This document shows, piece after piece, positions 26,525-33,021 of a DNA stretch of 64,000 bases. The notes below the pieces were generated by a model. The model was not told where the DNA came from. It saw nothing but the letters and a program-made list of their open reading frames with translations, and made no database searches. How positions within the stretch are numbered: position 1 is the stretch's first letter; each line of letters begins with the position of its first letter. The DNA lies in assembly GCA_965645245.1 (NCBI GenBank), contig OZ287087.1:682001-746000 (forward strand), read 5' to 3'. Origin of the DNA: Massalongia carnosa (taxonomy: Eukaryota). A program made the translations under genes and the position numbers.

Positions 26525-28360
26525 TTATATGAGTGTCGTAGCGGAAAGCTTTTGTATGACGTCTCGATTGAATGTTGTCGCAAAGTCGTCTCGTCCAGTA
26601 CGATCCTTGTATTTGGATTCAAGACACAGTAACACGGCACTGGAGTAAGCCTCGCCCATGTTGTGCGCAATCTTTCTCTTGGCATACCAGCTGTAAAACT
26701 TACTGATCTCCAATGCACTCATGCTTCGAGGTTCGCCGGCACGTTTTCGGTCGCGTTGCGACTGATCGGTCATGGCTTTTGCCGTCTGCCAAACCGCAAT
26801 CTCCAGAAGAATCACACCAAGCGAATATATATCGTGCGTCTTGCTATGCGGAGGCCGGAAGGATCCTTGTAAATCCGCGTGAAGGTAAGGATCAACCTCG
26901 CTGGTATAAGCCGCAAGTGTGGATGAGGCCCCGTTGGGTCTGGAGTACTCAAAATTGACAAGGTAGGGCACATAACAGAGATTGTCCTGACCTGTGGTTT
27001 CCTCCTCACGGTGATTGAAAAACACCACGGATTGGCTCCGTACACCCTTGTGGATCCAACCATCGGCATGGAAATTACCCAGACTCAGAGCGATCCTCTG
27101 GGCAATCTTGAAGCGAGTGGACAGTGATAACGATCGCCTGCTTTCTATGATGGAATGTAATGAGATTGGATCGCTCGGTTCGGCATCCTCGGGGATCTCA
27201 AACACGAAGGCATGCCTTCCCAGCTCTGGTTGGTGTACGAGACCCTTGAACGGCAATGTTCCAAGTTTGTTGAGGCCGGAAGTATCTAGAATACTTGCCA
27301 GCTGGTTGACCCGCACCTTAACTGTTTCTCGGGTTGAAGCTTCCTCTTGAATCGGTGCATCAAAGTCCGCAAAGACCGGCGACCCGTTGGTGCCGCTAGT
27401 GAGCCAGCTGAACCGTGAAGGGCTGGTGGTTGTCAGATGTCCATTCTGCTCGCCGGCATTCGAAGTGTTGAAGTATGCTTTGTATTCAACCAAGACAGTC
27501 TCTGTGGTGGTATTTCCTTCTGCTATTTTCCGTTTCAACGTTGCCATGTGAACAGTAGACGCATTGCCCGTTGCCTCGAAGTAGCCGTTTTCGATATTGA
27601 ACCGCCTTTTGCCCGAGCTAGCACTCATCGCGAGCATTGTCCTCTCAGCTCGAGCTGCAAAACCTAATATATTTGCATCCTTGTCGTCACGTAGAACTTC
27701 GTATGGTTTTTGTTGCTGGCCCCAAAGACTTTGCAGGCGTGACTGGTACGCTACTGCGATCTGGAGGGTACCCGACAACTGGGCATTCCGCTCACGGAAT
27801 TTCTGCACGATGGCCTCCAACTTCTTCTTGTCAAACAGTGACCATCTTGAAGCTACACGGAGCTCTTCAGCTTTTGTTTTCATCCGGGAAAGGGTCGATG
27901 GTTTGCCTGTCTCGCTTTGGTCTGGTTTCTGTGACCCGAAGGACTTGCTCGCCGCTAAAACCTGCTCAGTCCATGGCGAGTAGCTAATCCGTGCGAGCCG
28001 CGCATAATCGGAAAAGTCATCTCGGAAGCGTTCACAGATGTGAATGGTGTCAAATAGTATCTCCTGCAAAGAGAGGTTGGTAAGCGTCTCCGAAACATCC
28101 ACAAGTCATGGTCGTCGCATAGGGCACAGACCGACCTCATTGATTAGCTCATCGTCGACAAGGTTCCCTTCGGCCTTACTGAACCATCGTTCGAATGCGC
28201 TGAGAATGACAAGCTCGTGACGGATATCATCCACAACTCGTTTCCTTTCCAAGTCGCACTGTTTGGCCGATTGAACTGTATCGTAGATATATTTCCCTAC
28301 CGTGTAGGCTTCGTGGCAAATCGCGATAACCCCGACAGTGATGCTGAATGGATCGGCCAT
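26525..28360 (-). CDS. HeLo (HET-s N-terminal-like) domain + pseudokinase, about 587 aa; exons 28360-28136 and 28063-26525
   Basis: N-terminal MADPFSITVGVIAIC hydrophobic helix; HeLo-type RWSLFDKKKLEAIVQKFRERNAQL; kinase fold with VLVEYK, HKG in place of HRD, NFE in place of DFG, and DIYSLGVILLEIA. A 72-nt phase-0 intron removes the in-frame stop. Confidence 0.85.
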
Positions 28361-28730
28361 TCCCACCTCGTTGGACTGGATCTATGCTTTGTTCGATCGC
28401 AATGTGAGAATATGCGCCGAAAGTCATGTTACAGATATGAGGGATTGATACCAAGTTGTTTACAGAGCACAGTCCGCCGTACGAGTATGTAATATACGTT
28501 TTTGTGTCATCAATCCATGCTAGCCGATGATCTGCACCATACCACTCTGTATCATTATCGAAGCCCTCAGCCTTCACGATCATTCCCTAGGCAGTCGATC
28601 CTATGAAGAAATGGCACATCCTCAAAAACAATGTCGCTATGTCGCTCAAAGAATGACAGCCTTGTCGAAGCCAGCGAGGTTGATCTGAGTTGAACAGCTA
28701 GTTGGATGGACGGTAACGTATCCATCCACG

Positions 28731-31700: not shown

Positions 31701-33021
31701 ACCCTCTCTATGACGATAGAGTAGGGGTGAGATACTTTGTTCGGATGCTCTTCATAACTCGACAGATCCTTTTATCAAATTATCTAAATGTTCTCTTGCT
31801 GTTCATACCATTGAGTATTGTCGCACAAAAACTAGATTGGAGCATGGTCGCTCGAGTTGCCTTTAGCGTGCTGGCAATAGGTCCGCTAGCGGCGAATATA
31901 GTTTTGGCAACAAAAGAACTGTCAAAAAAACTGCCTTCCACACCTCTCAATCAAAGGTTTGTTGTTGTTCTGAGCAGTTGCTCTCCGGAGGTATTTGTAA
32001 GTCCATCGGTCTTTCACAAACCCAGTTTCACAAAGCATCACAAAATTCCCTGCAATCCATTTTCGTTTAGCTTTTTTCAACTCAATCGATAGAGACTGTC
32101 AACAAACTGCTGACCTGGACAAGATCGAAGTATCTGCTGTTGTTAGGGGAGGTGTCAATCTTATGAAGTCAGTCATAATTGGGGACATTCTGTTTACATA
32201 TCTAGTAGGTTTCAGTTAACCCTTAGTCTGCCCGAAACGCTAACCTTGAGCAGCTGCTGGGAATCTGCGTCACCATCAGTGGTTTATTTCATCGGGAGCA
32301 GACTCTTTATTATACTCCAGCTGGTATAATGGCTCATCTCGGGGTTATTCCAATCATATTCGAGATCATACTGTCGCTATTCTACACAATGCGCATCGAC
32401 TCAGCGCCCTTTGAGGTCATCGCAGGAGTGCTCTTCTTGTCACGCATCGCAGCCATCATCTCCCTCATCCTCTGGTTTGGTTTTCTCTGTTTCCGCTACG
32501 TATCTCATCGAGAACTCTTCTTCGAGGAAGAAGGCGAACAGCTTAATGAAGAGCTTCATGACACTTTTTTAGATCCCGTGGCTGCATTAGTCCTACTGAT
32601 AGTATCGGCACTTTTACTAGCAATCTGCTGTGACAATCTTGCTCAAATCATCCTCCATTGTTCCGAGCGCCAGACGAGGCTCCTTGGACTATTGCTTGTG
32701 CCTGCTGCCACGAAGTGTTGGACTCATGTGCCATCTGTGCAACAAGCCATGCGGAACAGATTGGATTATACTCTGGACTGGACGGTTGGAGCTGGTCTGT
32801 ATACGACGCTGTGCATCGGTCCTTGCCTGGTCGTGTTGGGCTGGATAATTGGCGTGCCTATAGATCTACGTTTCGGGTTGAGGGAGACGATCAGTTATGG
32901 TGTGGCTATTTGGGGTATCAACATTATTATCGCCCGACGCCTAGTCAATTACTTGAACGGAATCATCATTATAATTTTGATAAGTCTAATTATCTTCAGT
33001 TTTGTCATTTATTCTCCATAG
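28731..33021 (+). CDS. Ser/Thr kinase-ankyrin-WW-Ca2+/H+ exchanger (CAX/Vcx1)-like fusion, about 1290 aa. Inferred exons 28731-29019, 29073-30696, 30892-31996, 32124-32204, 32254-33021.
   Basis: Kinase motifs GKGSQGYV, VIKR, HENIVKLIG, HGDLKPANVL, CDFG. Ankyrin TALHDAV...QDTFGETALD. WW LPIGWE. CAX-like NVLLLFIPL, ATKEL, HREQ, SHRELF, VVLGWIIGVP.DLRF. The first junction could be a frameshift rather than an intron. Confidence 0.78.

Follow-up and report, generated by a model that had tools for sequence, protein, structure and literature searches.

A head-to-head gene pair encoding a HeLo-type pseudokinase and a TKL-like kinase in Massalongia carnosa: a candidate MLKL-like module of filamentous ascomycetes

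Results

Organization of the locus

We analyzed a 64,000-nucleotide stretch of the Massalongia carnosa genome (contig OZ287087.1; hereafter the window, to which all positions refer). Two genes are arranged head to head in this stretch: gene A on the minus strand (26525-28360, 587 aa) and gene B on the plus strand (28731-33021, approximately 1306 aa). Their start codons (ATG 28360 on the minus strand and ATG 28731 on the plus strand) are 371 bp apart, which confirms the divergent pair with about 370 bp between starts that had been proposed in a first-pass annotation. The 370 bp between the start codons (28361-28730) form a putative bidirectional promoter common to both genes, and this region carries non-3n indels between haplotypes at 28388, 28444, and 28538. 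The window around the pair is rich in transposons. The neighboring genes, which had been described as decayed, turned out to be ORFs of Gypsy, Copia, pogo, and Tc1 transposons. For the second haplotype, there is no read cover past approximately 31580.

Gene A encodes a probable HeLo-type bundle followed by a pseudokinase

Exon 1 of gene A (28136-28360, minus strand) encodes 75 aa (MADPFSITVG...DDELINE) containing the predicted first helices of a HeLo-type bundle. This stretch aligns colinearly with residues 1-75 of P0003, the orthologue from Lambiella, and gives a weak match to PigL_N (PF17111, E 7e-4). A single intron follows (28064-28135, 72 nt, GTCGGT...CAG), whose splice sites were read from the sequence; the resulting exon junction matches that of P0003 (...DDELINEGILLDTIH), and other haplotypes have a 1-nt insertion within the intron at 28075/76. 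The first part of exon 2 (27614-28063, minus strand) would supply the remainder of the bundle and the brace helices, and its second part (26525-27613, minus strand) encodes the pseudokinase (DUF7580) and ends with the stop codon.

The assignment of the N-terminus to the HeLo family, as originally suggested, holds at the level of the family and is weak for the window itself. On exon 2 alone, the HeLo profile (PF14479) gave 20.8 bits (E 3.8e-4), below the cutoff of 23.2, with residues 53-128 of the ORF aligned to positions 117-189 of the 205-position profile; the orthologue P0003 scored 21.8 bits. Among 46 members of the gene A family, 28 matched HeLo at E<=1e-3 (best E 4.2e-25), as did 12 of 27 pseudokinase ORFs that are paired with a kinase, 10 of them above the cutoff. 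The C-terminal assignment is firmer: DUF7580 (PF24476) matched exon 2 with 36.9 bits (cutoff 27, E 4.3e-9) and was found in 45 of the 46 family members; 10 of the 46 matched Pkinase. In the window, WIHKG stands in place of HRD (27029-27058) and NFE in place of DFG (26936-26962), followed by the activation-loop stretch NGASSTLAAY (26906-26935). The loss of catalytic residues that had been noted for this fold was thus borne out, and it extends to the family, none of whose 46 members has the HRD Asp.

The AF2 model of P0003 (pLDDT 81, pTM 0.81) contains helices at residues 4-31, 36-61, 74-102, 133-152, 155-188, and 193-222, so that a helical part (4-222) and a kinase fold (225-592) lie in one chain. 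The model thus has the layout of MLKL, i.e., a helical bundle, a brace, and a kinase-like domain. Its C-terminal domain aligns to kinases generally at Z of about 20 (e.g., BRAF 6u2h_D, Z 20.2, rmsd 3.9 over 260 residues). When residues 1-222 were modeled separately (pLDDT 76.5), HET-S (2wvo_A) was recovered at rank 15 of 48,161 structures (Z 7.6, rmsd 4.3 over 125 residues) and MLKL (4btf) at Z 7.0, a range that unrelated helical bundles also give; the Rx CC domain scored above both at Z 9.5, and Z values below about 13 are common for helical bundles. A Foldseek search with the N-terminal domain model returned no match at E<=1e-3. MLKL, HET-S, and RIPK are absent from the best 50 matches listed for the full-length model, which does not exclude them. 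Gene A most likely encodes an MLKL-like protein whose HeLo-family bundle and brace helices precede a TKL-like pseudokinase unable to catalyze phosphotransfer.

Gene B encodes a kinase with a divergent membrane domain

Exon 1 of gene B (28731-30696, plus strand) contains an N-terminal region, a TKL-like kinase (approximately 28930-29944), and a conserved helical middle (ARLRSR...CCW, LAWLCRGDVG). Pkinase (PF00069) was matched with 58.1 bits (cutoff 31.7, E 1.2e-15). The full catalytic motif set previously ascribed to this gene could be located: a G-loop (GMGKGSQGYV, 28965-28994), VIK (29087-29101), HGDLKPANV (29420-29446), DFG (29507-29524), and PPE (29555-29569). Judging from these motifs, gene B most likely encodes a catalytically competent TKL-like kinase.

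Both reading frames had been described as conserved, which is true of gene A, whose frame is intact, but not of gene B, in which a break at 29044/45 separates the G-loop from the VIK lysine. We attribute the break to a one-base gap because contigs from four of four other runs carry an additional C after position 29044. An intron at 29005-29072 that would join the two frames was rejected, since it would delete the conserved RLQRSLDGW and since alignment with relatives shows the frames on both sides of the break to be conserved. Such a frameshift may mean that the kinase/pseudokinase switch is disabled in the haplotype of the window, or else the assembly may be in error at that base.

The downstream gene structure was predicted from the sequence and from relatives. 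Intron 1 (30697-30891, 195 nt, GTAAGT...CAG, phase 2; read from the sequence) has a 1-nt deletion at 30866 in other haplotypes, and its junction is colinear with the Lambiella protein P0187 and with proteins of Teloschistaceae. Exon 2 (30892-31996) contains one ankyrin-like repeat (31040-31186), an LPIGWE region (31310-31327), the motifs YFLDPLRF and DDLWYHHE, and the first Na_Ca_ex-like membrane helices (from approximately 31778); it is colinear with P0187, P0188, and others. Intron 2 (31997-32123, 127 nt, GTAAGT...AAG) was placed by reference to relatives, such that the SPEVF/IEVSAVVRGG junction would fit their APELFLGLSAVARG. Exon 3 (32124-32204, 27 aa, IEVSAVVRGGVNLMKSVIIGDILFTYL) was aligned with relatives, and a probable intron 3 (32205-32253, 49 nt, GTAGGT...CAG, branch site GCTAAC) precedes exon 4 (32254-33021, 255 aa), which encodes the remainder of a divergent Na_Ca_ex (CaCA) membrane domain and the stop codon. 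All of these features are on the plus strand.

Three kinds of further domain had been proposed for gene B, namely ankyrin, WW, and membrane domains. Ankyrin support consists of one Ank_5 match of 22.4 bits (E 1.6e-4), under the cutoff of 27; the relative P0198 scored 27.0 bits. No WW family match was found in the window ORF 30854-32092 at E<=0.1 or in 11 relatives at E<=0.01; an LP[LI]GWE motif is conserved. The membrane part is most likely a divergent domain of Na/Ca-exchanger type; the window match itself lies below the Pfam cutoff (PF01699, 20.7-22.6 bits versus 24.9; E 4.3e-4 at 20.7 bits). Colinear fused relatives exceed this cutoff (P0188, 51.4 bits; P0189, 42.3; P0198, 40.2; P0194, 32.4), and canonical Na_Ca_ex relatives of 420-460 aa reach 124-157 bits. 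Exon 4 and the C-terminus of P0187 share 46% identity (E 7.5e-65), and exon 4 has 1410 relatives at E<=1e-3. The fusion of a kinase with a Na/Ca-exchanger-type domain also occurs in several other Lecanoromycetes. Across lineages, the C-terminal part of gene B homologues differs, consisting of long ankyrin arrays, a short hydrophobic tail, or an ankyrin-like repeat with a Na_Ca_ex-like domain.

Both kinase-type domains are TKL-like by profile comparison

When the family profile of the pseudokinase was compared with solved structures, MLKL was among the three best families (4m68, E 2.3e-5; 4btf, E 5e-5), with KSR1 (E 5.9e-6) and IRAK4 (E 1.4e-5) scoring as well or better. The kinase family profile matched BRAF best (E 1.6e-17), and the best 60 of its 1448 solved matches include RAF, SOBIR1, IRE1, FERONIA, and LRRK2, with no RIP kinase among these 60. 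These kinase matches were obtained with the family profile and not with the single window ORF, which by phmmer gave no match to solved structures at E<=1e-5. As judged from these comparisons, the kinase-type domains of both genes are TKL-like.

The head-to-head pairing is conserved in other fungi

Absence of linkage between the homologues in other genomes had been set beforehand as a refuting test, and linkage was found both in metagenomes and in two named genomes. A total of 80 metagenome loci were grouped into 64 clusters at 90% identity, 38 of which extend 2 kb or more upstream of the HeLo-pseudokinase gene. In 31 of these 38 non-redundant clusters, the opposite strand encodes a protein kinase upstream. 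Such an opposite-strand homologue of the window kinase was detected by tblastn in 27 of the 38 and an upstream homologue on the same strand in none (0/38), and Pfam added an upstream divergent Pkinase in four (L027, L035, L044, and L064); the partner kinases of L035 and L064 have long ankyrin arrays (Ank_2, 397 and 271 bits, respectively). Kinase matches numbered 30 in the 155,055 bases of upstream zones versus two in 381,375 bases elsewhere, and the projected start-to-start gaps are mostly between -200 and +1200 bp. No upstream kinase was present in the other seven clusters, which include the closest relatives in the set (L001/L003, 42% identical, and L004, 36% identical). In Lambiella insularis, the kinase (MMC13_000156, 49% identical) and the HeLo-pseudokinase (MMC13_000157, 61% identical) have adjacent locus tags, as do the homologues in Aspergillus mulundensis (DSM5745_01703 and DSM5745_01704); these two species belong to different classes. 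Eleven pairs of hits moreover agree in the length of their longest contig, which bears on linkage indirectly.

Our literature search retrieved no report of a conserved kinase/HeLo-pseudokinase pairing, nor the term "DUF7580", and supplementary files (e.g., those of PMC9815663 and PMC12881547) might list such architectures or neighbors. The HeLo-pseudokinase architecture itself has been mentioned in a 2025 review (PMC12881547).

Catalytic split, co-inheritance, and selection

The two families differ consistently at their catalytic positions. In an alignment of 38 kinases that includes the window row, K136, H244, G245, D246, K248, N251, D274, and G276 are invariant. All 38 sequences keep HGD, the Lys of VAIK, the catalytic Asn, and the Asp of DFG, and 28 of the 30 paired kinases show the pattern HGD[LIMV]K. 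In the pseudokinase family (n=46), the HRD-Asp column contains Ser (28), Asn (8), Gly (7), or Glu (2) and never Asp, and the DFG position reads [N/D/G]-F-E. The same holds at the paired loci, where none of the 22 readable pseudokinases has Asp at the HRD position; three paired pseudokinase ORFs contain in-frame stops. One activation-loop column contains Thr in 36, Ser in eight, and Glu in two of the 46 sequences (Ser/Thr in 44/46). That the catalytic residues are always kept in one partner and the catalytic Asp never in the other supports a functionally coupled pair of a kinase and an MLKL-like protein.

Co-phylogeny of the partners had been suggested as a check, and it gave a divided answer. 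Both genes have the same nearest neighbor in 17 of 30 loci, and the kinase and pseudokinase distances are correlated by the Mantel test (r 0.59, reached by 0 of 2000 permutations), but by rank the two matrices are hardly correlated (Spearman 0.04), and co-variation is confined to close pairs. For pairs with dS>0.03, dN/dS ranged from 0.09 to 0.43 in the pseudokinase and from 0.06 to 0.52 in the kinase; both genes are under purifying selection in relatives.

Discussion

Taken together, the locus may represent a conserved divergent two-gene module of filamentous ascomycetes that combines an MLKL-like executioner with a dedicated activating kinase, a reading of the sequences to which we give an even chance. 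Coupling of the kinase to the pseudokinase is suggested by their linkage, and we infer phosphorylation, HeLo release, and killing by analogy with animal necroptosis, in which MLKL (a 4HB/HeLo bundle, a brace, and a pseudokinase) is acted on by the kinase RIPK3. Under this model, kinase B would be both sensor and activator, and a signal would enter through its variable C-terminal part. The kinase would then phosphorylate pseudokinase A at the conserved Ser/Thr of its activation-loop equivalent, and phosphorylated A would free its HeLo bundle to attack a membrane, so that the cell would be killed or walled off, as by RIPK3 with MLKL; no amyloid signal would be required. The wider proposal, that across Pezizomycotina this pair forms a necroptosis-like licensing cassette in which the kinase phosphorylates an MLKL-type HeLo-pseudokinase without an NLR or amyloid and the exchangeable C-terminal part serves as the sensor, is more tentative, and we regard it as possible but somewhat improbable.

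Three other relationships between the genes were considered, each of which we judge unlikely. The pair might work in the reverse direction, as RAF and KSR do, with pseudokinase A as a membrane-targeted scaffold that activates kinase B through dimerization; phosphorylation would then fall on other substrates (e.g., in stress or ion signaling), and A would not permeabilize a membrane. The best solved matches of the two profiles are indeed KSR1 and BRAF, themselves partners in a kinase-pseudokinase pair of the TKL group, and in Lecanoromycetes kinase B has a membrane domain of its own. KSR has no HeLo bundle, activation in that system is allosteric through dimerization, and the RAF and KSR genes are unpaired. 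Against the reversed reading, the N-terminus of A belongs to a family (28/46) whose characterized members kill by membrane attack, and a conserved loop Ser/Thr that is Glu in 2/46 sequences is more in keeping with a substrate than with a pure scaffold. Comparable in probability is the view that a shared promoter has kept the two genes together for a common membrane or ion-stress response, with no direct interaction and no cell death. Linkage alone has been demonstrated, and the Na/Ca-exchanger-type domain of B hints at ion homeostasis, but co-regulation only would hardly account for the short-range co-divergence (17/30) or for the fact that, in at least two classes, a catalytic kinase domain is strictly paired with a non-catalytic one.

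Slightly less probable still is a guard or antidote relationship, in which kinase B would restrain executioner A, either by binding it or through inhibitory phosphorylation, so that loss or inhibition of B, for instance by a pathogen effector, would lead to death. Tight head-to-head linkage is also typical of toxin-antidote and guard-guardee pairs, and the variable C-terminal part of B could serve as a decoy. An antidote would not be dispensable, however, which sets two observations against this explanation: the window combines a frameshifted B with an intact A, an argument that depends on the frameshift being real, and A occurs without the kinase in 7/38 clusters, an argument that depends on expression of the solo genes. 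As for chance adjacency of unrelated genes, the many transposons of the window could have scrambled the gene order; yet the same arrangement at 31/38 loci, the 30 matches in upstream zones versus two elsewhere, and the adjacent locus tags in two named genomes already refute it, and we assign it a very small probability.

The proposed module of an executioner and its activating kinase can be compared with known systems. Like MLKL, fungal protein A combines a bundle of the HeLo/4HB superfamily with a C-terminal TKL-like pseudokinase, and its candidate partner is a second protein, an active kinase of the TKL-like type. The fungal genes are paired head to head; to our knowledge, those of RIPK3 and MLKL are not physically paired. 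The RIPK/MLKL-like switch envisaged at the outset stands in part: linkage and the catalytic split favor coupling, but the nearest solved matches of the fungal kinase (best 60 of 1448) include RAF, plant RLK, and LRRK2 and no RIPK. It also differs in bearing ankyrin or Na_Ca_ex parts.

HET-S and HELLP are characterized HeLo-family members that kill by membrane attack and are controlled by NLRs through amyloid templating, as in HET-S/NWD2 and HELLP/PNT1. The gene A family shares with these executioners the same N-terminal family (Pfam HeLo), but A ends in a pseudokinase and not in a prion-forming motif, and its neighbor is a kinase and not an NLR. The locus is likewise a candidate adjacent regulator-executioner pair, an arrangement that the 2025 review (PMC12881547) presents as a theme of fungal HeLo/HELL executioners. 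By description, gene A also shares its layout of a HeLo-type bundle and a pseudokinase with proteins from outside animals. These are the plant MLKL proteins, reportedly described by Mahdi et al. in 2020 and said to have an immune role; we know of no dedicated adjacent kinase that activates them. The same two-gene logic of executioner and activator is found in the fungal gasdermin HET-Q1 and the protease HET-Q2, where a pore-forming executioner is said to adjoin its activating enzyme; there, the activating step is proteolysis and not phosphorylation, and neither protein belongs to a family related to A or B.

The review mentioned above (PMC12881547) calls for broader work on fungal HeLo/4HB proteins. 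The paired active kinase is a direct, testable candidate switch for fungal HeLo/MLKL-like executioners that have no prion motif. The system comprises two genes that share one putative promoter, and it offers for mutation an invariant catalytic Asp in the kinase and a single conserved Ser/Thr in the loop. A kinase fused to a divergent Na/Ca-exchanger-type domain, as seen in lichen fungi, is also an unusual arrangement, which may link the switch with ion flux or with a specific membrane. If the cassette reading is true, the regulator-executioner pairs of fungi, which include the NLR-amyloid-HeLo and the protease-gasdermin classes, would gain a third class in kinase B and HeLo-pseudokinase A, and kinase-to-MLKL control would either predate the split between animals and fungi or have arisen twice. 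The recurrence of the pairing in many fungi points to a possible fungal counterpart of the animal RIPK3-MLKL switch.

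Layout of the divergent gene pair

Genes A and B point away from each other, and their start codons (28360 on the minus strand and 28731 on the plus strand) lie 371 bp apart, in agreement with the spacing of about 370 bp described in the first-pass annotation. Gene A comprises exon 1 (28360-28136, 75 aa), an intron of 72 nt (28135-28064, GTCGGT...CAG), exon 2 (28063-26528, 512 aa) and a stop codon at 26525-26527, all on the minus strand. It encodes 587 aa, colinear with those of the 592-aa Lambiella insularis orthologue MMC13_000157 (P0003), and identity over exon 2 is 61%. Gene B, on the plus strand, was modelled by colinearity with the annotated Lambiella kinase P0187 (1207 aa) and Teloschistaceae proteins (1327-1387 aa), which gave four exons (28731-30696, 30892-31996, 32124-32204 and 32254-33018) and a stop codon at 33019-33021. 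The introns at this locus are predictions from the sequence. Apart from a frameshift at 29044/45, the indels that separate haplotypes fit both gene models: those at 28075/76, 28388, 28444, 28538 and 30866, which are not a multiple of 3, are all intronic or intergenic, and those within exons are of 3 nt (29832 and 30306) or compensate each other (30096 and 30198).

The pair lies in a transposon-rich stretch (4798-10112, 14238-15257, 18791-20986, 33503-34861, 51316-53345, 54143-59811 and 62038-62709). The window contains two Gypsy-type elements (gag and RT-RNaseH-integrase-chromo), two Copia-type fragments, one RT fragment and one Tc1-like fragment, and a Tc5/pogo DDE transposase ORF of 452 aa is located immediately downstream of gene B.

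Gene A: a predicted MLKL-like pseudokinase

Exon 2 of gene A matched Pfam DUF7580 at 36.9 bits (cutoff 27) and, weakly, Pfam HeLo at 20.8 bits (under the 23.2 cutoff), and exon 1 showed a weak match to PF17111, a family once named Helo_like_N. Among 46 relatives, DUF7580 was detected in 45, HeLo in 28 (best E 4.2e-25) and Pkinase in 10. In the AlphaFold2 model of P0003 (pLDDT 81, pTM 0.81), residues 4-222 form a helical bundle and brace, and these are followed by a kinase fold that aligned with BRAF over 260 residues (Z 20.2, rmsd 3.9) and with many other kinases at Z of about 19-20. The absence of catalytic residues from this fold, noted at first pass, was confirmed: the catalytic loop reads W-[VIL]-H-K-x in the 46 sequences, the column of the HRD aspartate holds Asp in none of them (S 28, N 8, G 7, E 2), and DFG is replaced by [N/D/G]-F-E; gene A itself has WIHKG and NFE at these positions. 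The best matches of the family profile to solved structures were KSR1 (E 5.9e-6), IRAK4 (E 1.4e-5) and MLKL (4m68, E 2.3e-5; 4btf, E 5e-5), so the pseudokinase is TKL-like, with MLKL among its closest relatives, though not uniquely. Gene A is thereby predicted to encode an MLKL-like protein.

When the N-terminal domain of P0003 was folded alone (pLDDT 76.5), Foldseek returned no match at E<=1e-3. In a full structural scan, several HeLo/4HB/CC superfamily members ranked among the top 30 of 48,161 chains, including Rx CC (Z 9.5), Sw-5b (Z 9.3), HET-S 2wvo (Z 7.6, 125 residues, 15% identity), MLA13 (Z 7.3) and MLKL 4btf (Z 7.0). As the scanning tool itself warns, Z values of this size are ordinary among helical bundles, and the HeLo assignment therefore rests on sequence profiles.

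Gene B: a predicted catalytic kinase with a variable tail

The ORF at 29045-30700 matched Pkinase at 58.1 bits. Across 38 aligned relatives there is no variation at the VAIK lysine, H-G-D, the catalytic Lys and Asn, or the D and G of DFG, and the alpha-C Glu and APE Glu are at least 90% conserved. Every one of these residues is present in the window, which bears out the complete catalytic motif set reported earlier; gene B probably encodes a catalytic kinase. Its family profile was nearest to RAF, SOBIR1, IRE1, FERONIA and LRRK2 among solved structures, and no RIP kinase occurred among the best 60 of 1448 matches.

The kinase domain is followed by a family-specific helical region (ARLRSR...CCW, LAWLCRGE[VI]G). 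For the ankyrin domain proposed for gene B, a single ankyrin-like repeat was recovered, at a score (22.4 bits) under the cutoff. The proposed WW domain was not found: the region corresponds to a conserved stretch ('LP[LI]GWE ... YxLDPxRF ... DxWY', 'LPIGWE...' in the window), and WW models gave no match at E<=0.1 in the window or at E<=0.01 in 11 relatives. The membrane domain matched Na_Ca_ex (CaCA) at 20.7-22.6 bits in the window, under the 24.9 cutoff. The cutoff was exceeded (32-51 bits) by colinear fusions from Ikaeria, Pyrenodesmia, Polycauliona and Variospora, which suggests a divergent Na_Ca_ex-type domain. An exhaustive search with the last exon of gene B yielded 1410 relatives, among them further kinase fusions exceeding 1000 aa in length and canonical 420-460-aa exchangers, the latter scoring far higher on the Pfam Na_Ca_ex model. 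Given the colinear relatives above the cutoff and these further fusions, the kinase-exchanger fusion is real, and it is shared among Lecanoromycetes. Other lineages have instead long ankyrin arrays (metagenome loci L035 and L064, and Aspergillus mulundensis P0133) or a short hydrophobic tail.

Three kinase relatives without the exchanger domain (P0121, P0110 and P0123) end in a hydrophobic stretch resembling a membrane anchor, and the tail of P0123 is similar to the first exchanger helices of the window. The exchanger domain also occurs in long proteins related to 32254-33018 with unrelated partners, namely a PLP-dependent enzyme plus F-box, an alpha/beta hydrolase and a P-type ATPase (P0315, P0394 and P0327); these could be genuine fusions or artefacts of gene-model merging.

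Reading frame of gene B and forms of the locus

The reading frames of both genes had been described as conserved. In the window, the G-loop of gene B lies in one frame and the remainder of the kinase in another. Since relatives are coding in both frames right up to 29044/45, one base is missing at this point, and a 68-nt intron (29005-29072) joining the frames was rejected for the same reason. Public contigs from each of the four sequencing runs examined have an additional C after 29044 (2183/2183 depth units in X1, 26.5/26.5 in X2, 900/2467 in X3 and 12.3/12.3 in X5), so that other haplotypes or strains keep the frame. The window haplotype is either frameshifted or mis-assembled at the CC/CCC run.

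In runs X1 and X3 (organism A), the locus is present in two forms over 26500-31580, one identical to the window and the other different by a few percent; in X1, 55 contigs had at least 99% identity, 27 had 95-99% and 15 had 90-95%. The two forms may represent alleles, different strains within one thallus, or a paralogue. If they are alleles, such high divergence would be in keeping with an allorecognition-type locus. At 31158 and 31451, contigs of X1, X3 and X5 break off into unrelated sequence, and positions 31005-31377 are missing from one X5 contig (depth 3); the C-terminal half of gene B may be structurally different in the other forms.

Conservation and co-inheritance of the pair

JGI metagenome contigs were scanned with the HeLo-pseudokinase alignment. 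A total of 591 stretches matched, 289 of which encode a relative; the best 80 loci formed 64 clusters at 90% identity, and 38 of these had 2 kb or more of upstream sequence before the projected gene start and were usable for pairing. Using tblastn with the window kinase ORF, an upstream homologue on the opposite strand was identified in 27 of the 38 clusters, none on the same strand, and nothing at all in 11. A Pfam scan of these 11 (nine loci yielded 13 upstream ORFs of 110 aa or longer; L004 and L075 had no such ORF) added an upstream divergent Pkinase in L027, L035, L044 and L064, with long ankyrin arrays in L035 and L064. The linkage on which the first-pass proposal depended thus held in 31 of 38 clusters, as well as in two named genomes: MMC13_000156 (kinase) adjoins MMC13_000157 in Lambiella insularis, with consecutive accessions on one contig, and DSM5745_01703 adjoins DSM5745_01704, by locus tag, in A. 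mulundensis, which belongs to a different class. Indirect evidence of linkage comes from eleven pairs of database hits whose longest contigs are of equal length. As an internal control, the 4-kb upstream zones gave 30 matches in 155,055 bases, versus 2 in the remaining 381,375 bases of these loci. No upstream kinase was found in seven of the 38 clusters, among them L001/L003 and L004, the most closely related of the set, and the Zopfia homologues retrieved lie on different contigs. The paired kinases have HGD[LIMV]K in 28 of 30 cases, and Asp follows HK in none of the 22 readable paired pseudokinases. Of the pseudokinase ORFs in 30 paired loci, 27 were scannable (DUF7580 in 24, HeLo in 12) and three were dropped for in-frame stops.

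These stops fall inside the tblastn match (L008:2252-3745, L009:1416-2909 and L074:9704-10804), and the ORFs are either decayed copies or contain short introns that were read through. HeLo-pseudokinase genes without an upstream kinase occur in L001, L003, L004, L037, L046, L065, L068 and L075. Upstream of them lie isocitrate lyase and an SRR1-like ORF (L037), a metallophosphatase (L065), a weak caspase-like match (L046, E 0.006), or almost no long ORF within 6 kb (L001).

In 17 of 30 loci, the two genes had the same nearest relative. Kinase and pseudokinase distance matrices had a Pearson correlation of 0.59, which 0 of 2000 permutations reached, and a rank correlation of 0.04, because most distances are saturated. 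As linked genes are expected to co-vary, this indicates inheritance and duplication as a unit rather than co-evolution. In close locus pairs, the only ones that allowed the estimate, dN/dS ranged from 0.09 to 0.43 in the pseudokinase and from 0.06 to 0.52 in the kinase. By these comparisons, a predicted non-catalytic HeLo-pseudokinase and a predicted catalytic kinase have been kept together in at least two Pezizomycotina classes, head to head in the metagenome loci, with both genes under constraint.

Possible mechanism and relation to known systems

Overall, the observation made at first pass is real, with three exceptions: the WW domain, the weakness of the ankyrin match and the interrupted frame of gene B. 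Its best-supported reading is a putative MLKL-type executioner with a genomically dedicated kinase, and the linkage expected of such a pair was found. By analogy with the RIPK3-MLKL necroptosis switch, which is summarised in PMC12881547, kinase B would phosphorylate pseudokinase A and release the HeLo bundle for membrane attack, while the variable kinase tail (ankyrin arrays, or the exchanger-derived membrane domain) would serve as input. A candidate phosphorylation site is a conserved Ser/Thr in the loop between FEYSRP and YRHP[DE], which is of low confidence in the P0003 model (residues 457-462); one column of this loop is occupied by Thr (36 of 46 sequences), Ser (8) or Glu (2), and the window has Ser there, within NGASSTLAAY (26906-26935).

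That the kinase acts on the pseudokinase is likewise something we infer, and other relationships can be envisaged. The two proteins could form an allosteric pair like RAF-KSR but acting in the opposite direction, or the two genes might be merely co-regulated. Kinase B could also be an inhibitory guard, or antidote, of the pseudokinase; an intact gene A without a functional gene B argues against this, if the frameshift of gene B is real.

The HeLo-pseudokinase architecture of gene A is already known (PMC12881547), and the passages of that review consulted make no mention of a paired kinase. Among the main texts of open-access papers searched, none described the kinase/HeLo-pseudokinase pairing or the kinase-exchanger fusion, and none mentioned DUF7580 by name.
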